Virus record (IMG/VR): IMGVR_UViG_3300044580_000569
Location: 1 to 41,166 of that record
DNA length: 41,166 bases
Reading direction: 5' to 3' (one strand)
Source: a virus
Lineage: Duplodnaviria > Caudoviricetes
The notes below the pieces were generated by a model. It did not search any database. It saw nothing but the letters and a program-made list of their open reading frames with translations, and was not told the origin of the DNA. This document shows positions 2,151 through 41,166 of this stretch, piece by piece (the stretch's first letter is position 1; every line of letters begins with the position of its first letter). The translations under genes were made by a program, and so were the position numbers.

Positions 2151-2978
2151 TTAAATAAATATCATTTTTAGATCAAATTCGCACCAGATTTTATTCTTTC
2201 CTATTGCGATACGGCCTACATTCATTTCCTGGTAATATGCAGAGTATGTTTCTTCATTCTTATTGAAGTATAGCTCTCTTTCTCCCGGTCTTGTCAGGTC
2301 GTAAAAAAACGCATTCAAATTGCGCATCAGCGCAGCGGCACTTCCAGCTGTAGCGAGTAGTTTTAAGCGCACATCCTTAGCCTTCATTTTGACATGTTCT
2401 GGATCATAGACGGCTCCGTTGATTGCTGTTGTGTCAATCAGGAGGTTCTGTTTCACTTCCGGGATTTTCAGGATTTCTTCTTCGCTTCCCTGAAGGACTG
2501 CTATCCCATATTGCGATATGTCCTTTGTGTCGATTTGGTATCCCTGTTCCGGAAATTCTCCACCTGTTGGCTCCTGATATGTGTATCCGGACATGGGATT
2601 GTCTTCTGAAAATCGAAGCGTAAAAAGTCGCATTTTCAGGATGCTCCCTTTGAAATCTTGGCCGGCGAGGAGTCGGATTTGTTTTGTAATTCCCAAATCT
2701 GAAAACGTAACATCGTGGTATGCGCCATCAATGAGCAGGTTGATAAAACCATTAATGTCGGCATTCTGGTTGATGGTTGCAAACCGGACATCAAACTCTT
2801 TTCTTTCGTATTTCAAGTCTGACAGGTCGACCTCCAGGCCATCCTCCTCCGGCCAGTCGTTTGCTTCCGGTTCTTTGATTTTTGGCATGGATATAATGCC
2901 TGCGTAATCACCATCCCGGACGATAATTCCGTATGTGGTGGTAGCATTTATTCCGTCTATGATTATCTCGCCTGTCAT
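2151..2978 (-). CDS. Putative distal tail (Dit-like) protein
   Basis: 275 aa directly downstream of tape measure. Two similar halves (IDG..YGI..K.PE vs ID.K..YGI..KIPE). Confidence 0.6.
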   Translation of the reverse strand: MTGEIIIDGINATTTYGIIVRDGDYAGIISMPKIKEPEANDWPEEDGLEVDLSDLKYERKEFDVRFATINQNADINGFINLLIDGAYHDVTFSDLGITKQIRLLAGQDFKGSILKMRLFTLRFSEDNPMSGYTYQEPTGGEFPEQGYQIDTKDISQYGIAVLQGSEEEILKIPEVKQNLLIDTTAINGAVYDPEHVKMKAKDVRLKLLATAGSAAALMRNLNAFFYDLTRPGERELYFNKNEETYSAYYQEMNVGRIAIGKNKIWCEFDLKMIFI

Positions 2979-5900
2979 ACCTTGATATTGATTCCTTTTG
3001 TGTTGATCTGGTCGATTCCGCTTTTAACTGAATCCATTGTCTTTTCGATTTTCTCCAGTCGGCTGGTGTTCCGGTCGATGTTGAATAAATGGTTAATCAT
3101 CACCGTAATGTTGACCAGCATGATTTTCATATTTTCGCTAATTGAGTACGTGTGACCCTGTATTGCTGTCATCCTTCCATTCAGCTCATTGATAGAGTCC
3201 TGGCTGGCTTGTGCTATTCCCTTGCTTGATGCTGTCCTGTTGCTGGCATTAAATATGTCTATTCCTTGTTGTTTGAGGGCTTCTTGAGTATCCAGCATAG
3301 CCTTATTATATTGCTCGAGTGCAGCCGGGTATTTCTCTGTGAATCTTAAAATATCATCGATAATATCATAGTCGGCATTGTCGCTATCGAATGATGCAGC
3401 CATTTCTTCTTCGAGTTGATTAAACATTTTACCGAAAAATGCATCAAATATCTTTTGTTGCATGATTTCCTGTATCACTTCTGTCACCGCTCCTTTGAAT
3501 TTGTCGATTGCTCCGGTAATCTCACCATTTGTAAATGCTTCGACCAGTGCATCACTTAGTTTGCCTCCCAGGTCGCCGGCCAAGTCTGAGAAGGTTTGCC
3601 GCATTTGCTCCCGTGCTTCGACTGCTTTTCCTCTGATTTCTTCCCAATTGTCAATGAGCTTTTTTGTCGCATCATCCATCTTGTCGTAATCGTTCAGGAT
3701 TTCCTGATTAAGCTCGTATGTTTCCGGATTGAAAATTTCGCCATATTTGTCTTTTAGATTTTCCAGTACCGGAACTGTTTTTGTAGTCACGGCTCCGGCG
3801 ATACCTCCTACGATAGCTCCAATACCTGCGCCAATTAAAGTTGACAATCCGAATGTAAAACCTGCGAAAATTGTCCCAACTGCTGCACCGGTAGCTGCTC
3901 CGGCTCCGGCTCCACCAGCGACATTTCCCCAGTTGATTTCCTGTTTTGTTCCTGTTTGAACCTGTCCATCTCCCAATTTTGCAGCACTTCCCTGGAGTTC
4001 ATTCATTGCTGCTGCATACTGCATTGCTCCGTCGATTGCTCTCTGATATGGATTTTCAACTCCGAATATGTTACTCTCTTTGTATGACTCCATTTCGATA
4101 CGCGCCATTGCGGCCAGATGTGCGCTCTCCACAATCTTATCGTTCCACTCCTCCTGCGCTTGTTTGTTGGCTTCAATCTGGTTTGCAATAATAGAGTACA
4201 TGTCTGCAAGTCCGGAAATTCCGGCAGCTGCTATATCAGTTTTTGTCGCATTCTTGTCAAATATTTGGGTGACATTGTCAATACTTCCGGCCAGCCCACC
4301 GATAACGGATCCGATATCTCCCATGATACCTTCTGTCGTTTGAAGTGCGCCTGCAAGCTTTTGAAGCGATCCACTGAGCTTGTTCGCGATGTCGAGTATT
4401 TTCTCCCATTCTTTTGCGTCGACTGCTTCTGTTGATTTCGTTTTAACTTTATCGAGAGCAGCGGCTAATTTTTCAACGTCCACCCCGGCTTGTTTCAGCG
4501 TCTCCAGCTGTTCAGGTGATAGCTCGATTTCTGCTATCGTTTCCTTCAGCGTTCCAAGCTCTTTGATTGTGAGCTTGCTTATGTCCTCAAACAATGGCAT
4601 CGCTTCCTTTATTTTCGACTGCATGAAGTCGGAGCCTTCTCCAAAAAGATAAAGTTCAACCAGCCCAGTCCCGCTTTCGCGGAGCGCATCCTTTTGCAGT
4701 TCCTCGATTGCTTTTTGCATCTGTCGCTTTGCTTCTTTGACTGCATCACTTTCAGCACCCTGTTCGGTTGTCAATCTCTGTATATCTTCATTAAATTTCT
4801 TTTCGATATCCAATCTTTGTTGCGCGTAGTTCCGGTAGTTCTCGAGTAGTTTATCCTTCGTTTGCTGCTGCTTATTCTGGTATGCTTTATCCTCATTTTC
4901 ATCCATTGATGTGAATGCAGCAGCTTGTTTTGTCGATAGCTGGATACTTTCTTTGTCAAATTTCACACCTTTCGCTTCTGCTTCTGCTTTGGCATTTTCC
5001 CGGAGCGTAGAGAGCATATCTTCACGCTGGCGATTGATTTCTGTTTTTCGCTTTGCGTGGTTTAGTGCGAGTTGCGCCAGCTCTTTGTCGATGCCATCTT
5101 TCATCGCGTCGATGCGTGCCTGTTCAGCTTGGTACTGAATGTCTTCATCCATCCTTACCTGATTGATGCGGTTTTGCTCGAGCTGATTCTGTATTTTATC
5201 CTTATCTTTATTGGATTTGTCGTACTGTTTGTTAAAGAGCTGTATTTTCTTTTGTTCGGCCTCGATTGCTTTATCGATTTCTGTCAAACGCGTTTCCCTG
5301 TCTTCCGGTGTCATCGATTGGGATAGTATTTTTGACCTCTCACCCTGTAGTCTTTTAATCTCTTTATTGGATTTAGCGATGTCCTGAGCAGCTGTTGTTC
5401 TAAGTGTTTTGCGCTCCTTTTCTTCCATCCTCAGCTGGGTGAGCTGGTTGGCTATCTCGCTTTTGTCGTATGTACCCATTCCGGTGATACGTCCTTTCTT
5501 GTCGCTGTCTCCAATTGCGGAGAGGAGCTTTTCTCGGCGAGTTATTTCGTTTTGTAGTTGGTCGTCTGTAAATCCGGTTATTCCGGCCAGAAAGTTTTTA
5601 GCATTGTCCTTTTCGATGTTTCGTCTCGTTATTTCGAGGTCGGCTTTGGCATCTTCTACGGCTCTGGCCAGTTGCTGTTGTAACACGGAGTCGGAAAGCG
5701 AGCCAGTCGATTTAAAATTTTTTAATCGTTCCTGTGCTTTCTCTACCTTTTCGAGTTGCTCATCATAGGTATCTTTTAGCGTTTTAGTAGCCCTATTCTC
5801 CTCCTCTTGTGCGATGTCCTTTTTGAGCTGGAGTATTTGCTCGAGAGTCATTCGCTCGGTGTTATATTTCGCGATGATTTCCGGGTACAATTCAATGAGT

Positions 5901-7180
5901 TTCTTTATTGCCTCGCGCCTTCTTCCTTCTGTAGCGTATTGGTCATTCATGGTGTCGATGGCCTTATCTACTTCTGCTTTTCTCTGTTGCTCTTTTTGAA
6001 TAGCGATTTCCTGTTGTTCATTATACCTTTTCGTTGCTCTCTCGGCGGCTGTTGTTTTGTCCCGGAGCAGGAATATAGCAGTTCCGAGTCCAACCAGAAC
6101 GGTTGCCGCGAGGACGTATGGGTTCACAGCCATCGCTGCATTGAGTGCTTTTTGTGCTGCAGTCTGGACTCCAATTGCGACGGCATTTGCTTTGTGGCCG
6201 AGAGTTAATGCTCCAAGCGCGCGATTCATCTCAAGGTATAATGTGGCAGTTTTCGATGCGGCTACAATTTTTTCGAGAGCTGCTATTGTGATCAGGGCAG
6301 CTTTGTAGGTTCCGTAAGTTGCTACAAGGATTGCGATGGCTTTTCCTATGCTTTCGTAATTTTCGACGGCTGTTTTTGCTCCTGTAATTACACTTGATAT
6401 TGTGTCCTGATTTGCGCGTCCGATTTCGTTCATCATCATATCGACGGCATCTCCAAGATTCGAAATCTGACCTCCGATAGTTTTACTTTGTTCCTCCATC
6501 AGATTATAAAATTTCCCACCTTTTGAAGTCATAGCCACAAATGCTTTTTCTATTTGTGGAAATCCGACAAGGCCTTCGCTGACAAGTTCAGTTACTTTAT
6601 CTTTTGTAACTCCGAATTGTTTTGCTAACTCTTCAGCGACTGGGATACCGCGTCCCATAAATTGTCGCATATCTTGAGCAAAGAGCCGGCCTTGCACCTG
6701 CGTAGTTCCGTATAAATATACAAGGTCATTTAAAGGGATGGAAAGTCCGGCAGCAACATTCCCGAGCATAACAAGGTCTTTGTTGACGTTTTTAGCCGAT
6801 GTTCCGTAAGCCAGAAGGCTCTTTGCTCCGGATGCTACGGATTTTAAATCAAATGGTGTAGTTGCGGCGGTCTGGATTAGCTGTCCCATCAATTCATCTG
6901 CAGCAGATTTGCTTTGCAGCATGGTTTTAAATGCCACTTCGAGCTGTTGGAATTCTCCACGTATATTGGCTATTTGTTTTGCAAATCCTGCGGCTGCAGC
7001 TGCTGAAAATGCGACACCGATTGAGGCTCCAATTTTCCCGATCATGTTATCCATTTTCGCGCCTTCCTTCTGGGTGTCCTGGGATAGTCCATTGAACATT
7101 CCCTTTGCCCTTGCAAGGTCTTGCTGCAGGCCTTTTGTGTCGGCTGCTAATCCATATACTATTTTTCCTTCGTCGCTCAT
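2975..7180 (-). CDS. Tape measure protein
   Basis: 1401 aa helical/coiled-coil protein. N-terminal tape-measure motif (TAATTPF..LLAYG..LGNVAAG..QFMGRGIP). Follows tail chaperones. Confidence 0.93.
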   Translation of the reverse strand: MSDEGKIVYGLAADTKGLQQDLARAKGMFNGLSQDTQKEGAKMDNMIGKIGASIGVAFSAAAAAGFAKQIANIRGEFQQLEVAFKTMLQSKSAADELMGQLIQTAATTPFDLKSVASGAKSLLAYGTSAKNVNKDLVMLGNVAAGLSIPLNDLVYLYGTTQVQGRLFAQDMRQFMGRGIPVAEELAKQFGVTKDKVTELVSEGLVGFPQIEKAFVAMTSKGGKFYNLMEEQSKTIGGQISNLGDAVDMMMNEIGRANQDTISSVITGAKTAVENYESIGKAIAILVATYGTYKAALITIAALEKIVAASKTATLYLEMNRALGALTLGHKANAVAIGVQTAAQKALNAAMAVNPYVLAATVLVGLGTAIFLLRDKTTAAERATKRYNEQQEIAIQKEQQRKAEVDKAIDTMNDQYATEGRRREAIKKLIELYPEIIAKYNTERMTLEQILQLKKDIAQEEENRATKTLKDTYDEQLEKVEKAQERLKNFKSTGSLSDSVLQQQLARAVEDAKADLEITRRNIEKDNAKNFLAGITGFTDDQLQNEITRREKLLSAIGDSDKKGRITGMGTYDKSEIANQLTQLRMEEKERKTLRTTAAQDIAKSNKEIKRLQGERSKILSQSMTPEDRETRLTEIDKAIEAEQKKIQLFNKQYDKSNKDKDKIQNQLEQNRINQVRMDEDIQYQAEQARIDAMKDGIDKELAQLALNHAKRKTEINRQREDMLSTLRENAKAEAEAKGVKFDKESIQLSTKQAAAFTSMDENEDKAYQNKQQQTKDKLLENYRNYAQQRLDIEKKFNEDIQRLTTEQGAESDAVKEAKRQMQKAIEELQKDALRESGTGLVELYLFGEGSDFMQSKIKEAMPLFEDISKLTIKELGTLKETIAEIELSPEQLETLKQAGVDVEKLAAALDKVKTKSTEAVDAKEWEKILDIANKLSGSLQKLAGALQTTEGIMGDIGSVIGGLAGSIDNVTQIFDKNATKTDIAAAGISGLADMYSIIANQIEANKQAQEEWNDKIVESAHLAAMARIEMESYKESNIFGVENPYQRAIDGAMQYAAAMNELQGSAAKLGDGQVQTGTKQEINWGNVAGGAGAGAATGAAVGTIFAGFTFGLSTLIGAGIGAIVGGIAGAVTTKTVPVLENLKDKYGEIFNPETYELNQEILNDYDKMDDATKKLIDNWEEIRGKAVEAREQMRQTFSDLAGDLGGKLSDALVEAFTNGEITGAIDKFKGAVTEVIQEIMQQKIFDAFFGKMFNQLEEEMAASFDSDNADYDIIDDILRFTEKYPAALEQYNKAMLDTQEALKQQGIDIFNASNRTASSKGIAQASQDSINELNGRMTAIQGHTYSISENMKIMLVNITVMINHLFNIDRNTSRLEKIEKTMDSVKSGIDQINTKGINIKV

Positions 7181-7383
7181 TTCCGATTCTTTTTTACAAC
7201 TATAATTTCTTCATCCTCTTTGAAGTTGTCCGGGTTGTTGGCATCTTTTGAAGCATCAAATTTCGGATTGTCCTTCTTTTTTTTGCTATCATAGCTCGGA
7301 ATTATCGAGCTGTAAAGGGCGACGTTTGCATAGCTGATTTCATAAAGTATGTAATCCGGTGTTAAACCCGGGTATGCCTTCAT
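7177..7383 (-). CDS. Tail assembly chaperone, T (frameshift extension) part
   Basis: Its frame is open upstream to the slippery site at 7479-7485 in the preceding gene. Confidence 0.75.
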   Translation of the reverse strand: MKAYPGLTPDYILYEISYANVALYSSIIPSYDSKKKKDNPKFDASKDANNPDNFKEDEEIIVVKKNRK

Positions 7384-7394
7384 GAATCCTCCAA

Positions 7395-7883
7395 TTACAG
7401 CCCAGATGCTGTCGTTTCTTTCATCACTTCCTTCGTCGCCTTGATGAGATTTATCTCGCTCAGGGAAGTGATAAGCACGAAAAAATCGGCTATCTCCAAC
7501 CTTGAAAGCAGCCGGGTGATCAGCTCGTTTGTTTCCTTTGGTGTCATCTTCACAAGTATGATTTCGGCCAGCTCTTCCCGTGTTGGGTTGCGATTAAACA
7601 ACCTGTTGAGAATTCTTTTTTCCTCTTTGATTGTTTTTGTGATTCCGAGGACTAATGTTGCCGCGATTATCCCGACTTTGTTGCATTTCCATGCGTTGGC
7701 CAGAGTTGTCTCGATAATAGCCTGCATACTTTCTACATTGTGAATGCGTGGAAATCCGGCTATAAGTTCCGAAATGCGTATCAGCGTGGCAGTTGTTGGC
7801 CTCGGTGCTTTGTATTGCCTTCCTGCTATTGTAACCACTTCTGGTTCTTGGAGGATGGTGTCGGCTGTTTTATTTTCAATCAT
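7395..7883 (-). CDS. Tail assembly chaperone G
   Basis: 162 aa between major tail and tape measure genes, contains T TTT TTC slippery heptamer. Confidence 0.75.
   Translation of the reverse strand: MIENKTADTILQEPEVVTIAGRQYKAPRPTTATLIRISELIAGFPRIHNVESMQAIIETTLANAWKCNKVGIIAATLVLGITKTIKEEKRILNRLFNRNPTREELAEIILVKMTPKETNELITRLLSRLEIADFFVLITSLSEINLIKATKEVMKETTASGL
7479..7485 (-). other. -1 programmed ribosomal frameshift site (T TTT TTC)
   Basis: Correctly phased X XXY YYZ heptamer (GAT TTT TTC). The -1 frame reads RAYHFPERDKSHQGDEGSDERNDSIWAVIGGFMKAY into ORF 7177..7383 with no stop. Confidence 0.8.
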
Positions 7884-7902
7884 TGATTTATTGTGTTTTG
7901 TT

Positions 7903-7978
7903 TGGTGGCGACAGCAGGATTCGAACCTGCGACCTCCGGACTATGACTCCGGTGAGCTGGCCTCTGCTCTATGTCGCG
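7903..7978 (-). tRNA. tRNA with CAT anticodon, initiator (fMet)-like, encoded CCA
   Basis: Folds as CGCGACA-TA-GAGC-AGAGGCCA-GCTC-A-CCGGA-GTCATAG-TCCGG-AGGTC-GCAGG-TTCGAAT-CCTGC-TGTCGCC-A-CCA (76 nt). Confidence 0.88.
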
Positions 7979-7984
7979 ATGTTT

Positions 7985-8012
7985 AAAAGGCAGCCGGGTG
8001 TTAATCGGCTGC
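7985..8012 (-). terminator. Possible weak intrinsic terminator after major tail gene
   Basis: GCAGCCG...CGGCTGC stem (7990-8012) followed by CTTTT on the minus strand. Confidence 0.5.
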
Positions 8013-13039: not shown

Positions 13040-13282
13040 ATGAATATGAAAACAATTGACGATCTCTTCGATTTGGTTTTGGAACAGACAAATAAAAACA
13101 AAGGTAAGATGGTTCGGTATATGTTCGATATCAGCCAGAGATATAATTGGGTGTCGATGACTCAGGTCGTTGAGCTTTCCGGTGAGAAGAAGGAGAAGGA
13201 GATTTTCTCTAATATGTCTATCGCGACTCCCGAGGAGCTGCAGTTGGTCTACTGGACTATCGTCAACAAAGGCCGCAAATAA
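13040..13282 (+). CDS. Hypothetical protein (accessory island)
   Basis: 80 aa, A-rich leader, tiles with neighbours. Confidence 0.75.
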   Translation: MNMKTIDDLFDLVLEQTNKNKGKMVRYMFDISQRYNWVSMTQVVELSGEKKEKEIFSNMSIATPEELQLVYWTIVNKGRK

Positions 13283-13338
13283 AAAACAATCCGGGAGCTT
13301 GTCTCCCGGGTAATATATAAACTCAAATTCACCGAAAA

Positions 13339-13542
13339 ATGAAAACTCTATTAATCAACGTATCCCAAGCAGCGAGAGCCTATGATGCTCTTGTGGACTC
13401 CTACCTGACTCGCTTCATCAACCAGACCGCATCTAATGCTTACGATTTCGACCCTGAAAAGCTGTTCTTTGGCGAGCCTTTGCAGGATGCTATCGTTGAT
13501 GTAATGGAGCGTTATGGTGTGAATGAATTTGAAATATTATAA
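13339..13542 (+). CDS. Hypothetical acidic protein (accessory island)
   Basis: 67 aa, A-rich leader. Confidence 0.75.
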   Translation: MKTLLINVSQAARAYDALVDSYLTRFINQTASNAYDFDPEKLFFGEPLQDAIVDVMERYGVNEFEIL

Positions 13543-13561
13543 ACCCTTTAATTTTATAAAT

Positions 13562-13783
13562 ATGGACGCTTTAGAATTTATCACAAATTATAAATCATAT
13601 GTGGCTCGAATTGAGGCCATATCTGCTGAAAAATTTCAGCCGGCTATTGATGAAATGTACAGCCGTGATCCTCATGATATGGTATCTCCAAGTACTTATT
13701 TAAATTCGGATGCTGAGGCCGTAGGTCTTGTATTCAGGTTTTTCCGTGTGGAGTGTATTCGTCTCGGTTTGATAAATGAATGA
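13562..13783 (+). CDS. Hypothetical protein (accessory island)
   Basis: 73 aa from ATG 13562 (MDALEF), followed by terminator. Confidence 0.7.
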   Translation: MDALEFITNYKSYVARIEAISAEKFQPAIDEMYSRDPHDMVSPSTYLNSDAEAVGLVFRFFRVECIRLGLINE

Positions 13784-13804
13784 TTCGGCCGGTCATCTTT
13801 CTCC

Positions 13805-13828
13805 GGGAGCTTCGGCTCCCTTTTTTTT
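13805..13828 (+). terminator. Intrinsic terminator
   Basis: GGGAGC-TTCG-GCTCCC followed by T8. Confidence 0.9.
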
Positions 13829-13914
13829 CCGGATCGACCCGGAATTTGCCGCGCTGTCCCGGTGCTTCTCGTTAGTTAATTAGAGTTAATCGACTGAAAA
13901 TAAATGCTTTATAA

Positions 13915-13946
13915 TTTGGTGTATTGAATAGAAAGCACTACCTTAG
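13915..13946 (+). promoter_or_regulatory. Promoter of accessory island, unit 2
   Basis: TTTG-N20-TACCTTAG, near-identical copy at 26773-26804. Confidence 0.65.
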
Positions 13947-13971
13947 AGGTATAAATTAAAAAACAAACGAT

Positions 13972-14334
13972 ATGAAAACTACAAAAACAAAAACTTACGA
14001 AATCAAAATTAAAAGCGCACCCGGTTCGTTCCATAAGATTGGGCATGATGCTTACCCTTCTCTAAATGCAGCACTTAAGGATGTAAAACTATTTTCTGAA
14101 GCGTTTAAGCCAGAATCAATTTTTGTATTCTGCAATGGCCGCATGGTATGTAAAACTGAAAATAAAAACGGTTCTTTCCGGGATCCTTATTATGAAATGT
14201 CTGATGGCTTCCAGTCTTTCTCTTGTGCTGCTGTTAATTCCGGAGATGATCGACTGGTTGCTTTGGCTGCTAATGTTGCAAAGGCTATCAATGAGATAAC
14301 CGACCACCTGAATTCAAATTATTTGTGGGACTAA
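13972..14334 (+). CDS. Hypothetical protein (accessory island)
   Basis: 120 aa, A-rich leader after promoter. Confidence 0.75.
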   Translation: MKTTKTKTYEIKIKSAPGSFHKIGHDAYPSLNAALKDVKLFSEAFKPESIFVFCNGRMVCKTENKNGSFRDPYYEMSDGFQSFSCAAVNSGDDRLVALAANVAKAINEITDHLNSNYLWD

Positions 14335-14351
14335 TCTTAAAATCTGAAATC

Positions 14352-14552
14352 ATGAAAAAGCGAAACGTCACTAAAATAAAAATAACATCCATCCACTCTG
14401 ATGGGATGTGTGGTATTCCTGCTCGTATATTGCTCCAGCGATTTTGTCTTCTCAGGTATTGTGAGAAAGTTGGCGACTCCGAGTCTGTGAATAACTACCA
14501 GCTCGGGTTGCTACGGGAGCATGGTGTTGAATTTGATGTAATTGAGATTTAA
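14352..14552 (+). CDS. Hypothetical protein (accessory island)
   Basis: 66 aa from ATG 14352. Confidence 0.6.
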   Translation: MKKRNVTKIKITSIHSDGMCGIPARILLQRFCLLRYCEKVGDSESVNNYQLGLLREHGVEFDVIEI

Positions 14553-14600
14553 AAATATAATGCTTGTCGGCTGCTCGAGTGTGGAACCGTCGCTTTTAAT

Positions 14601-14960
14601 ATGACTTACTCCGAAATAACGCAGCAGCATGCTCCCTGTGAGAACTGCTTTTTTGCTTTCTCAAATGAGCAATTTAAAGAAGGATTGGCAAAGGCCGGCC
14701 TTAGTGAAAATGATAAAATCTATTCTGCCGGTCATGGCTTGTATGGCACAAAGGAAGGCATTCAGAAGTTTTTTTCATTTTATGATGAGCAAGATAAACG
14801 CATCGCTGCTGAGTGCGATCCGCAGTCGGTTTATGATTATGAATTCGTAAATCATGAGTGTTCATATACTAATGATGACCGCGAGGCGTTCGCCATTGTG
14901 GTTCGGATTTTTGGCGAGGAGACAGCTGGTTCTGTTAAGCGCAGATATGCGTATTCGTGA
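14601..14960 (+). CDS. Hypothetical acidic phage protein (FFAFS.EQF...YEF.NHE motif)
   Basis: 119 aa. Motif pattern recalled from phage/ICE hypothetical proteins. Confidence 0.75.
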   Translation: MTYSEITQQHAPCENCFFAFSNEQFKEGLAKAGLSENDKIYSAGHGLYGTKEGIQKFFSFYDEQDKRIAAECDPQSVYDYEFVNHECSYTNDDREAFAIVVRIFGEETAGSVKRRYAYS

Positions 14961-14984
14961 TTTTCCGGTCTCGTTATTTTTTCG

Positions 14985-14992
14985 TACCTTTG
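14985..14992 (+). promoter_or_regulatory. -7 promoter box for the last two island genes
   Basis: TACCTTTG, a perfect TAnnTTTG, 27 nt before ATG 15020. No clear -33 box. Confidence 0.5.
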
Positions 14993-15019
14993 TGTGTTAT
15001 ACTTAATAAATCCATCCTG

Positions 15020-15277
15020 ATGACTGAAAATAAAAAAATGACTTTTTACCATGTCCGGTTCCGGGAGGCTCCGGACACATCTGGCCAGCTCGACTATTAT
15101 TTTGGTTCGCTGGCGGCAATCTACGACGTGTTTTCTCCCGAGCAGGTCGGCTGTAAAATTGAGAATCTTTGGAATAAGAATCTTAGCTCTGGTGGCTCCT
15201 GGTCTGGTTCCCGGTCGACCGTCACCCGGTGTGAAATGATAAGAAAAAAAACTAACAGAGGAGGGCGTATAAAATGA
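15020..15277 (+). CDS. Hypothetical protein (YYFGSLAAIY motif)
   Basis: 85 aa from ATG 15020, stop overlaps next start (ATGA). Confidence 0.7.
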   Translation: MTENKKMTFYHVRFREAPDTSGQLDYYFGSLAAIYDVFSPEQVGCKIENLWNKNLSSGGSWSGSRSTVTRCEMIRKKTNRGGRIK

Positions 15278-15489
15278 GCGAACCAAAATATAAAGAAGAA
15301 TTAACCGAGGCTATGCATTCGGAGTTTGAAGTCGATCTGGCTACTGAATTACAGCATCGGTGCATCACTCTTTGGTGTCTTGCTGGAGCTAATGAAAACA
15401 AAGAAGATTTCCCGGCCTTGTGCGAGCTTTATGGCGTGACTGTCGATGAGGCTCTGGAGTTGAAGGGTTATTGTTTGAGCTTACTTTAA
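15274..15489 (+). CDS. Hypothetical acidic protein, candidate immunity protein
   Basis: 71 aa, translationally coupled to previous gene, converges on the MuF C-terminus. Confidence 0.65.
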   Translation: MSEPKYKEELTEAMHSEFEVDLATELQHRCITLWCLAGANENKEDFPALCELYGVTVDEALELKGYCLSLL

Positions 15490-38490: not shown

Positions 38491-39555
38491 ATGGATTTTA
38501 AAGACTCAATTAAACAAATTGCGGAGCGGGTGGAAAAATTAAAAGACAACCTCCCGACAGAAGAAGCTACAAAGAATGCTTTAATTATGCCATTTATTCA
38601 GGTTCTTGGTTATGATGTGTTTAATCCTTTAGAAGTGCTCCCTGAAATGAACTGTGATATAGGGATGAAAAAAGGAGAAAAAATTGATTATGCAATTTTG
38701 AAGGATGGAAATCCTATCATGTTAATTGAATGTAAACACTGGGCACAAGATTTGAATTTACACGACAATCAATTATTGCGATATTTTCATGTTTCAAAGG
38801 CAAAGTTTGGGCTTCTCACAAATGGCATCATTTTTAAATTTTATACCGACCTTGAGACTTCCAATAAAATGGATGAAAAACCATTTTTAGAAATTAATCT
38901 ACTTGATCTTAAAGATGCGCAAATCGAAGAACTAAAGAAGTTTCATAAATCGTATTTTGATGTTGATATCATTTTGAGTTCTGCAAGTGAATTGAAATAT
39001 ACAAGTGAATTGAAATCAATTATTGCTAAAGAATTCGCAAATCCATCACCAGATTTTGTTCGTTATTTTGGAAAACAAATTTATGATGGGACATTCACTG
39101 CAAAGGTGTTAGAACAATTCACCTCTTTGGTTAAGCGGTCTATTGCTTCGTCTATAAATGATATGATTTCTGATAGATTGAAAGCCGCAATTAAAGAACA
39201 GGACGACCAGCATGAACAATCTGATGCTTTTGCACAGAGCACTCCTGATTCGCGTGAAGATAAAGTCGTTACTACGGATGACGAGATCGAGGCTTTTTAT
39301 ATTGTTAAATCAATTCTTAGAAATGTAATTTCTGCAGAAAGAATAACCTACCGAGATGCTCAAACTTATTTTGCTATATTTATTGATAATAACAATAGAA
39401 AAACCGTTTGTAGGCTATATTTAAATTCAGAATCAAACAAACGCATTACTTTCATTGATGAATCAAAGAAAGAAGTTCACAATAAAATATCATCAATTGA
39501 TGATATTTATAAATTTTCAGATCAATTGATAAATGTTGTTCAAAAATACGTATAA
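38491..39555 (+). CDS. HsdR N-terminal-like PD-(D/E)xK nuclease protein
   Basis: TEEATK.ALIMPF...LGYDVFNP.EV, KIDYAI, IECK, QL.RYF, LTNG. Confidence 0.88.
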   Translation: MDFKDSIKQIAERVEKLKDNLPTEEATKNALIMPFIQVLGYDVFNPLEVLPEMNCDIGMKKGEKIDYAILKDGNPIMLIECKHWAQDLNLHDNQLLRYFHVSKAKFGLLTNGIIFKFYTDLETSNKMDEKPFLEINLLDLKDAQIEELKKFHKSYFDVDIILSSASELKYTSELKSIIAKEFANPSPDFVRYFGKQIYDGTFTAKVLEQFTSLVKRSIASSINDMISDRLKAAIKEQDDQHEQSDAFAQSTPDSREDKVVTTDDEIEAFYIVKSILRNVISAERITYRDAQTYFAIFIDNNNRKTVCRLYLNSESNKRITFIDESKKEVHNKISSIDDIYKFSDQLINVVQKYV

Positions 39556-39562
39556 TTAAACC

Positions 39563-39841
39563 ATGCAATCATCAGATTCTCAAAAAATAGTTGAGCGTTT
39601 CTTCGAGGTAATTTATGACCTGAAGGCTCGCCGGGTTATTCGTGGAAAACAAACCTTTACACGGGCATATGGTATTGATCGTTGGAATTTCAACAAGGTT
39701 GAGGCTGACAAGTCTCGGGATATCTTCCAGATTTCATGGTTGGCTTACCTTGTCAATGATTTTGGTGTTTCGTCAGAGTGGCTGATGACCGGCCGTGGTG
39801 ATATGTATATCTCGGTTCCTCAACCTGCAAAGAAAAGATGA
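39563..39841 (+). CDS. Small HTH/XRE-like protein
   Basis: 92 aa, FGVSSEWLMTGRG.M motif, coupled to integrase. Confidence 0.7.
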   Translation: MQSSDSQKIVERFFEVIYDLKARRVIRGKQTFTRAYGIDRWNFNKVEADKSRDIFQISWLAYLVNDFGVSSEWLMTGRGDMYISVPQPAKKR

Positions 39842-41166
39842 AATTTTCCTATCAGTTCCTTCTTGATTCCGAATCTGGCCGGGATGACTTAAAGTTGCGG
39901 CTCCGCGTGAGGTGGTCTGGACGCGTTGTTTCATTTGGTGTCGGTTATCGCGTCGATGCTTCGAAATGGAGCCGGGAGACACAGCGTTGCAAAAATTCGA
40001 CAACTCATGGGAATCGTAAAATTTCGGCATCGGTGATAAACCGGAAAATTCAGGAGCTGGAGTCTGTTGTGGTTGATTTGTTCTCTGGCTATCAAACTCG
40101 GGATGTAGTTCCTTCTGTAGACCAGTTCCGTTCTGATTTCAATAAAGCAATCGGCAAGGCTCCGGCCGTTGTTCCTATATCGATTTTTGCCGCTTTTGAT
40201 GAGTTCGTGAATACCTCCGGGCAGCTCAACTCCTGGAGTCATTCGATGCATCAGAAGTTTGGAACTTTCCGCGCTCATCTCTTTGCTTTTGCTCCCGGGT
40301 TGACTTTTGGTTTGTTGACAGATTCTGTCTTGACAGATTTTGTCAACTATCTAAACCGGTGCGGTCTTCGCAATATCTCAATCGACAAAAATTTAAAAAT
40401 GTTTCGCTGGTTCCTTCGCTGGGCTTTCCAGCGTGGATATTACTCCGGCCGGTTGCATGAAACTTTCAGGCCTCGGTTGAAGGGTGCGGATGGCAATAAA
40501 GAAGTTATTCATCTCTCCTGGGATGAGCTTCTCATGTTCCTTGATTTTGATTTTTATGGTAATGTTGGCACACCAGAAGAACCGGAATTCCTTAATAAGG
40601 AAAAAGCGCAGGCTTTGGATCGGGTTCGTGATGTGTTTTGCTTCTGTTGCTTCACCGGATTGCGATACTCTGACGCTGCAAAGCTGACGCGTGACGATGT
40701 CCGGGACGGCTCGCTGCATGTGGTTACTCAAAAGACGGCCGATGCTCTTAAAATCGAATTAAACGAGTTTTCTGCGTCCATTCTTAAAAAGTGGGAGCCG
40801 GTCAGCTTTCCTTCTCGTCGGGTGCTTCCTGTTATATCAAATCAAAAAATGAACGACCAGCTCAAAATTGCCGCGCGTGTCGCAGGTCTCGATTCTCCGC
40901 AGAGGGTCATCTATTTTAAAGGGAGCAGCCGGTTTGAGGAGGTGTTTCCGCTTCATGATGTCATCAGCACTCATGCTGGCCGTCGCACCTTTATTGTCAA
41001 TGCGCTGTATCTTGGGATTCCTTCGGAGGTGATCATGCGCTGGACTGGCCATAAAAATTTTGCTTCAATGAAACCGTATGTCAAAATAGTAGATGATTTA
41101 AAGGCTCGGGAAATGTCAAAGTTTCGCCGGGATGCCTTGTCCCCTGGGGACGATTCTGGGGACTAA
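39838..41166 (+). CDS. int: Tyrosine integrase (arm-binding, SAM-like and catalytic domains)
   Basis: TGLRYSD, QKT, HAGRRTF, GH......PY catalytic residues. Confidence 0.95.
   Translation: MKFSYQFLLDSESGRDDLKLRLRVRWSGRVVSFGVGYRVDASKWSRETQRCKNSTTHGNRKISASVINRKIQELESVVVDLFSGYQTRDVVPSVDQFRSDFNKAIGKAPAVVPISIFAAFDEFVNTSGQLNSWSHSMHQKFGTFRAHLFAFAPGLTFGLLTDSVLTDFVNYLNRCGLRNISIDKNLKMFRWFLRWAFQRGYYSGRLHETFRPRLKGADGNKEVIHLSWDELLMFLDFDFYGNVGTPEEPEFLNKEKAQALDRVRDVFCFCCFTGLRYSDAAKLTRDDVRDGSLHVVTQKTADALKIELNEFSASILKKWEPVSFPSRRVLPVISNQKMNDQLKIAARVAGLDSPQRVIYFKGSSRFEEVFPLHDVISTHAGRRTFIVNALYLGIPSEVIMRWTGHKNFASMKPYVKIVDDLKAREMSKFRRDALSPGDDSGD

Follow-up and report, generated by a model that had tools for sequence, protein, structure and literature searches.

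The gap between the tail tube gene and the tail assembly chaperone gene of a 41-kb temperate siphophage, whose relatives are prophages in Bacteroidota genomes, holds a tRNA-shaped element, and elements of this shape recur in the same gap in related phages with their stems kept and their anticodons free to drift. The element is best read as a recurrently domesticated tRNA-shaped cis element rather than as a special initiator tRNA. As to its role, comparison of the sequences leads us to lean, if modestly, towards a phage t-element, at which host RNase P and RNase Z would cut the tube mRNA from the chaperone/tape-measure mRNA.

The element and its setting

In the window, that is, the whole 41,166-nt stretch of DNA that was analysed, ARAGORN calls a single gene, a minus-strand tRNA-Met(cat) (Table 1). 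The same segment matches Rfam RF00005 at 57.6 bits (gathering score 29; E 5e-10), the sole Rfam family to reach its gathering score in the window, and its minus strand folds into a cloverleaf of -29.1 kcal/mol (z -2.5), an equally good fold being found in 2 of 200 shuffles. The tRNA proposed here in the initial annotation is genuine, in that ARAGORN, Rfam and fold agree. Read from the sequence, the acceptor end has an unpaired C1xC72, G2:C71, C3:G70, A73 and an encoded CCA, the D and anticodon stems contain A11:U24, G29:C41, G30:C40 and A31:U39, and the anticodon loop is G32-UCAUA-G38, with U33 and A37 kept; every base feature listed in that annotation (C1xC72, G2:C71, C3:G70, A73, A11:U24, the CAT anticodon, A31:U39 and G32/G38) is present.

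The copy in the window thus combines the 1:72 mismatch, G2:C71, C3:G70, A11:U24, A73 and CAU, which we take to be the marks of initiator tRNA-fMet, with an anticodon arm that lacks both the three consecutive G:C pairs closing the stem (A31:U39) and the C32/A38 closure of the loop (G32/G38). Passages of PMC2528185 give the three G:C pairs and the C32-A38 pair as hallmarks of initiator tRNAs. Elongator tRNA-Met and tRNA-Ile2 (CAT) do not match, since their paired 1:72 and C11:G24 are absent from the window copy, which has C1xC72 and A11:U24. Its best whole-sequence score in the Bacteroidales genome G002 is with a C11-type CAT tRNA; its D stem and acceptor top are of fMet type. Indeed, it shares with Bacteroidota host tRNA-fMet genes (L182, L184-L186, L190) the 1:72 mismatch, G2:C71, C3:G70, A11:U24, CAU and A73, together with a similar ACAT/ATAT 5' flank. 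It differs from them at 31:39, which is G31:C39 in 6/6 host genes and A31:U39 in the window, and in having G32/G38 for the C32/A38 of the host, a comparison that is not independent because the search pattern fixed C32/A38. The source of the window element is likely a host initiator tRNA gene.

The element is identical in L001, the one close relative (0/76 differences), whose tube gene differs at 24/501 positions and whose chaperone gene differs at 32/489. The exact anticodon-arm pattern had 30 hits in IMG/VR, 29 of them not tRNAs and the only tRNA being that of the near-identical L001 contig; against cultured phages the element gave generic tRNA matches only.

Table 1. Features of the window by position
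Feature	Position	Strand	Basis
Tape measure protein gene	2975..7180	(-)	phrog_9959, E 4e-213
T-like part of the chaperone pair (-1 frame from its ATG on)	7177..7383	(-)	phrog_25685; frame overlap
Overlap of G and T frames	7395-7440	(-)	
Tail assembly chaperone, putative G-like gene, 162 aa	7395..7883	(-)	phrog_12247 (unknown function); position and frame layout
A-rich unstructured leader; 22 nt from base 73 to chaperone ATG	7884..7902	(-)	fold
tRNA-shaped element, fMet-type acceptor and D arm, CAT anticodon	7903..7978	(-)	ARAGORN, Rfam, fold
Terminator-like hairpin: 7 bp, GC-rich, 9-nt loop, -11.8 kcal/mol, then four U's	7985..8012	(-)	sequence, folds
Major tail (tube) protein gene, 166 aa	8034..8534	(-)	predicted fold, Foldseek; phrog_17745 (unknown function)
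Small opposite-strand ORF cluster between scaffold-like and head morphogenesis genes	13040-15489	(+)	
Head morphogenesis protein, 889 aa	15526-18195	(-)	
HSDR_N endonuclease-like gene, 354 aa, adjoining the repressor	38491-39555	(+)	
Integrase	39838-41166		

The identity of the upstream gene comes from fold comparison, the sequence searches having given nothing: no hit was found for the tube profile among PDB sequences, and BLAST to the Porphyromonas tube was not significant. The AlphaFold model of the 166-residue protein has a pLDDT of 86.7, and its best Foldseek match is the Bxb1 tail chain (E 2.6e-6, TM 0.73), with other tail tubes next, such that the protein is, by predicted fold, a tail tube. 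Downstream of the element, the 162-residue product is a presumed G-like chaperone, labelled from position and frame layout and not from a family hit; two queries of the protein against cultured phages gave no match. An ORF in the -1 frame overlaps its gene and precedes the tape measure gene, which is the usual layout of G/GT chaperones. Such an open -1 frame overlaps the end of the chaperone gene in 11/11 loci printed, with a DSIW motif in 10/11, and a frameshift from G to T is presumed; the overlap contains no obvious classic slippery heptamer, and a purine-rich GGAAGTG-like word recurs in it. The integrase lies ~32 kb from the element. The tube fold, the G/GT layout and the integrase coordinates all fit the placing of the element in the initial annotation, between the major tail and chaperone genes and far from the integrase.

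Elsewhere in the window, the best cultured matches of the capsid are those of Porphyromonas phage005 and RAP44 (30-32%). Residues 196-351 of the 889-aa protein match, within the head-morphogenesis region, a PHROG named Bxa ADP-ribosyltransferase; Pfam found no domain in this protein, which leaves the enzyme domain putative.

Occurrence in related phages

Two samples of the gap were drawn. In the first, alignment of the chaperone yielded the best 80 of 410 viral hits together with 10 genome and 48 metagenome loci, 138 in all, which the window and L001 bring to 140; 11 without an upstream gene were dropped, and the 129 that were left hold 90 distinct gaps. A strict parser for an acceptor stem and T arm found the shape in 54 of these, against 7/1700 dinucleotide shuffles, 0/85 reverse complements and 3/1152 downstream windows. 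A covariance model built from 17 copies found it in 57/90 at E up to 1 which, with four more from the parser and one partial copy, gives 62/90. The second sample, from an alignment of the tube protein (best 80 of 149 hits), contributed 44 gaps new relative to the first, and a T arm was found in 31 of them, 25 of which were also found by the model. Conservation of position in related phages, which the initial annotation had named as a check, is therefore seen in both samples. In a search of 29 whole records the model matched 21, mostly once, with a second internal copy in G007 and G020. Within Rfam it is the generic tRNA model that matches, and the copies that are most degenerate are missed.

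The element is also dispensable. For this comparison 49 chaperone clusters were formed at 70% identity, two degenerate ones being left out and the imperfect L109 and L117 being counted as carriers by eye; half of the 16 element-free clusters are without a terminator, and four of these have a gap of < 40 nt. On a quick tree of the chaperones, presence of the element needs 13 changes, at least five of which are forced by well-supported branches.

Conserved shape and drifting decoding features

What is kept in these copies is the shape. Plain MAFFT alignment of 17 copies leaves 94% of the cells in stems paired, with changes on both sides in 17 of the 21 pairs and with 1:72 open in 12/17; in a separate Glu-like group of 11 copies, pairing is 97% and 8/19 pairs have changed on both sides. 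Covariation, the other check named for related phages, is thus found in both alignments, and it is seen in all four stems. Another alignment (95% paired, 20/21 pairs) is model-fitted and holds three host tRNAs, and is not relied on. In model-fitted alignment, too, the 22 clusters without a tRNA-like loop have acceptor pairs 2-7 paired in 127/131 cells and the T stem in 108/108, and in eight related groups 32 of 37 stem changes preserve pairing. Since the stems are paired even in clusters without a tRNA-like loop, selection on shape after decoding was lost follows; in other words, judged from these sequences, it is the RNA shape on which selection acts. C56, R57, A58 and C74 are found in 31/31 clusters, the T-loop part of this being partly built into detection. 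In the second sample, C is at 74 in 16/31 and at 73 or 74 in 31/31, several of the C73 cases having, by eye, an acceptor shorter by one pair.

What drifts is the decoding part. Clustering at 85% identity of 59 in-slot rows, from which three host tRNAs outside the slot, a partial hit and a misaligned row had been removed, gave 31 clusters: CAT is kept in nine, a 7-nt anticodon loop in 16, the three G:C pairs in two, C32/A38 in three, CCA in five and the full initiator set in two. Loops run from 4 nt (L102) to 18-20 nt (the L115 group); in some copies the D or the anticodon arm has gone or the acceptor is shortened. A clearly non-decoding copy stands in Phocaeicola coprocola DSM 17136 (L115), and ARAGORN labels such odd-anticodon copies Met, SeC, Val, Gly, Ile, Asn or Lys. 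The family shows two of the features by which a t-element is recognised, namely a conserved T arm stacked on a paired acceptor stem and freedom from the constraints of a decoding tRNA, the window copy alone being ambiguous in the latter respect.

These patterns bear on the proposal, put forward in the initial annotation, of a functional initiator tRNA, protected from the anticodon nucleases of the host by its changed anticodon arm and thereby able to sustain late translation. The window copy does keep CAU, U33, A37, A73, CCA, C1xC72, A11:U24, G29:C41 and G30:C40, unchanged in L001, and in the 16 seven-nt loops A38 is kept in three and lost in 13, more than its neighbours (positions 34-37 are kept in 11-12/16), which lends the idea weak support. 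Moreover, loop changes in phage tRNAs are predicted, in passages of PMC10264068, to evade nucleases; that evasion is itself a prediction. Against this stand the three G:C pairs and the C32-A38 pair missing from the window copy, an exact anticodon arm that recurs within a tRNA in just 1/30 pattern hits, that of the near-identical L001 contig, the full initiator set in two of 31 clusters and the absence of CAT from most. Phages, according to the same passages, generally avoid tRNA-fMet where VapC-LT2 targets it (PMC10264068), and a nuclease of this kind in the host is hypothetical. As a role for the family, a substitute initiator fails and is very unlikely. Because the window copy retains the marks for charging and formylation, and A38 goes missing more often than its neighbours, it is possible that this copy yields a released, chargeable RNA as a by-product or an early stage.

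The drift also recalls neutral decay, in which the gap would be a tolerant parking place where captured real tRNAs degrade as pseudogenes. Several source tRNAs, a range of copies from intact to barely recognisable, and a tree that needs at least five gains or losses would all suit such a history. Non-decoding copies, however, keep their stems, with compensatory changes, which is not expected of neutral decay and makes this account highly improbable.

Source tRNAs

Scored against the 30 tRNA genes of one Bacteroidales genome, occupants of the gap fall nearest to fMet (L293, L032), Ser-GCT (L298), Thr (L281), Trp (L358) and Glu (L079, L311), the Trp and Glu assignments having small margins; further occupants are unassigned. 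Some occupants look intact, namely the fMet-like L293-L296 with C32/A38 and the Ser-GCT of L298. From these resemblances, the bodies of the elements appear to match no fewer than five kinds of host tRNA, those just named, and to have several origins. All 30 distinct tRNA genes of Bacteroidales genome G002 have C74 and one has CCA, so that only the first C of CCA is encoded; C74 is also found in 19/19 of a mixed, partly overlapping host set (host genes L170-L193 and L368-L397, genomes G001-G005). C74 without the full CCA is, in other words, a signature of host tRNA genes that the phage elements keep.

Spacing, promoters and terminators

Base 73 and the chaperone ATG are a median of 22 nt apart (17-43, n=28), or 19.5 nt (12-24, n=24) in the second sample. 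This spacing is tight (sd 6 nt), and that to the tube stop codon is loose (7-134 nt, sd 38). A sigma-70 promoter scan found nothing above chance in the window, and a -7 box of the Bacteroidota promoter consensus stands within 40 nt upstream of the element in 0/55 cases. The element therefore probably belongs to the late transcript; a phage-specific promoter is the alternative.

Terminator-like hairpins occupy the gap in 8/16 element-free clusters against 4/31 with the element (Fisher p 0.012, a soft value as the clusters are related). Porphyromonas phage005b and RAP44 have a hairpin and U tract in the gap and lack the element. The window itself has both: a hairpin that was overlooked in the initial annotation separates the tube stop codon from the tRNA and stops 6 nt short of the latter. 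With its 9-nt loop it escaped the terminator scanner, whose loop limit is 8 nt. Its function as a terminator is presumptive.

A two-hairpin motif (TGAC, a short stem with a GAAAGA-type loop, CC and a hairpin with a GGNAGGT-type loop) stands ahead of the element, in the gap after the tube gene, at L054, L061, L063, L078, L110, L282, L293, L295, L298, L303, L307, L308, L315 and L338; it is alone in L315 and absent from the window, and gave no Rfam match in the loci scanned. The tube gene is of two types, ~20-28% identical, which switch across the gap (L032 versus the window; L281-L359), the chaperone of L032 being 56% and its tube 29% identical.

This switching of tube gene type between close relatives, together with the integration of related phages at tRNA genes described in passages of PMC10367356, would fit a DNA-level attachment site or recombination relic. 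An attachment site in a tRNA gene was nonetheless rejected, as the element is internal to the tail module in prophages, lies ~32 kb from the integrase in the window, and has a free sequence with pairing kept and both acceptor strands covarying; the DNA-level account is scarcely tenable.

Two contigs of run X1, which is probably DNA, stop on either side of the T arm, the depth being 17 towards the tube gene and 5.5 towards the chaperone gene; the 30-nt gap between them is compatible with branching of the graph at a word that host tRNAs also contain, and is not evidence. RNA run X2 is the reverse of X1, with low cover on chaperone genes and none on the tube gene; these too are contigs and not evidence.

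Proposed role

As a t-element, the element would be transcribed inside the late mRNA between the tube and chaperone genes. RNase P would cut at its 5' end, and RNase Z or another 3' nuclease just past the stem; cutting at one or both ends would part the tube mRNA from a chaperone/tape-measure mRNA that begins with a ~20-nt leader, and the two, decaying or being translated at different rates, would probably bring about a step down in protein output. In the window, a leaky terminator-like hairpin and the element may act in series. Transcription, cleavage, the cutting enzyme and the direction of the effect on expression are all points that we infer.

The grounds for supposing a cut lie in what is kept, since the T arm, the acceptor stack and the host-type C are the parts that tRNA-processing enzymes read. 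In the passages cited, the T-arm/acceptor stack is what RNase P binds, the elbow being the point from which it measures (PMC4919913); the enzyme also pairs with C74/C75 and is able to cleave precursors that lack CCA (PMC1874595), and PMC10731613 likewise describes the reading of the stack and the C74 pairing; RNase Z cuts CCA-less precursors after the discriminator (PMC1874595). Five Bacteroidales genomes have RNase P RNA (5/5) and RNase Z-like genes (5/5, two of them over the cut-off).

Several observations tell against processing. U at -1, the preference of RNase P, precedes the element in only 11/29; most carriers lack an upstream hairpin that could shield the cut tube mRNA; several relatives have no structure in the gap at all; and some occupants look like intact tRNAs. 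The short leader may be just the room that ribosomes need. The initial annotation had offered, besides the initiator, a tRNA-like signal for processing through which tube and chaperone levels are set against each other: of this proposal the conserved position and the covarying stems have been borne out, with anticodon and source free, and the processing itself stays conjectural.

The tight spacing to the chaperone ATG and the loose spacing to the tube stop would also suit an element that is not cut at all, acting as a folded cis structure, be it a pause or attenuation site, an insulator of the chaperone start, an exonuclease barrier or a site for a protein that binds the tRNA elbow. The leader is unstructured once the cloverleaf forms, and ASCH-like genes have comparable fMet-shaped RNAs as their 5' leaders, immediately downstream of promoter-like boxes. 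Insulation could come from any stable hairpin, however, and the kept T-loop and host-type C after the stem point to tRNA-specific enzymes; in addition, a U tract after the element is absent. An uncut structure is unlikely.

Toxins that target the acceptor end of tRNA are known, and the element might be an excised, CCA-tailed decoy that soaks up toxins directed against the acceptor end or elbow, with the late operon supplying copy number. A kept top half and a free anticodon are the pattern expected here too, and defences that target tRNA exist (passages in PMC10264068). A decoy has no need, though, to sit ~20 nt before the chaperone start or to alternate with terminators, and some copies have a shortened acceptor or are without the D arm, so that this role is distinctly improbable.

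If the t-element reading is extended beyond this gap, it becomes more tentative and may well prove too broad: phages may time and again turn host tRNA genes, of whatever type, into portable punctuation, RNase P/Z cuts replacing or supplementing terminators and setting the ratios of virion proteins, and many odd single phage tRNAs may be mRNA processing signals.

Similar RNAs at other sites

Another family of fMet-shaped RNAs, in which the conserved loop (mostly TTGACTT or TTAACTT) is not that of Met, was found 18-68 nt before ASCH-like genes at 44/74 loci, or in 18/38 distinct sequences. Its loci are L204, L206, L208, L209, L217, L220, L225, L235, L239, L249-L251, L254, L256, L258, L262, L264 and L268 (element near 1490-1565) and also L196:2817-2891; a promoter -7 box lies just upstream in 11/18. 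All five ASCH-like proteins tested match phrog_625, and Pfam ASCH is over the cut-off in 2/8 and weak in four, the rest being grouped by eye. No description of this RNA family was found in the open literature searched. Other phages carry fMet-shaped RNAs with changed anticodons, each at 1490-1565, after the major capsid gene (L236), after the capsid and a 154-aa gene (L247), after the terminase gene (L252) and after a head morphogenesis gene (L214).

Comparison with known systems

In the open full-text literature no report of tRNA-like elements at the tube-chaperone junction was found; subscription papers and supplements of structured-RNA surveys could list them. Passages of PMC10367356 and PMC4810235 make no mention of one. 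If the t-element reading is true, it would bring an organelle-style punctuation of mRNA by tRNAs into a bacterial virus, evolved several times from different tRNAs, and would offer a testable account of why a single late transcript gives many tube subunits and few molecules of chaperone and tape measure. On that reading, moreover, single phage tRNAs called with odd anticodons may decode nothing, which affects analyses of codon compensation, recoding and anti-defence.

The phage tRNAs described in passages of PMC10264068 are, like the window copy, altered near the anticodon loop relative to the host; they keep their anticodon and decoding shape, whereas the tube/chaperone family does not. For cuts in phage and polycistronic RNAs, the non-tRNA substrates of bacterial RNase P provide precedent, among them hisCD mRNA, phi80-induced M3 RNA, P1/P7 C4 RNA and T4 gene 32 mRNA (passages in PMC10731613 and PMC11143913), but these, unlike the phage elements, are not whole captured tRNA genes in a virion operon. 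The terminators after the tail-tube genes of Porphyromonas phage005b and Riemerella phage RAP44 stand in the same gap, with the same presumed step down after an abundant protein; they are a simple hairpin and U tract, and the tRNA shape is absent.

The t-elements of plant mitochondria (Forner et al. 2007, PMC1920247) are likewise tRNA-like, with a conserved T arm, and lie beside protein genes; in the passages cited they are proposed, and in part shown, to direct the RNase Z and RNase P cuts that make mRNA ends (PMC1920247). The phage elements, which are known from sequence, differ from these in standing within bacterial late operons at one fixed junction, in coming from several tRNA types and in alternating with terminators.
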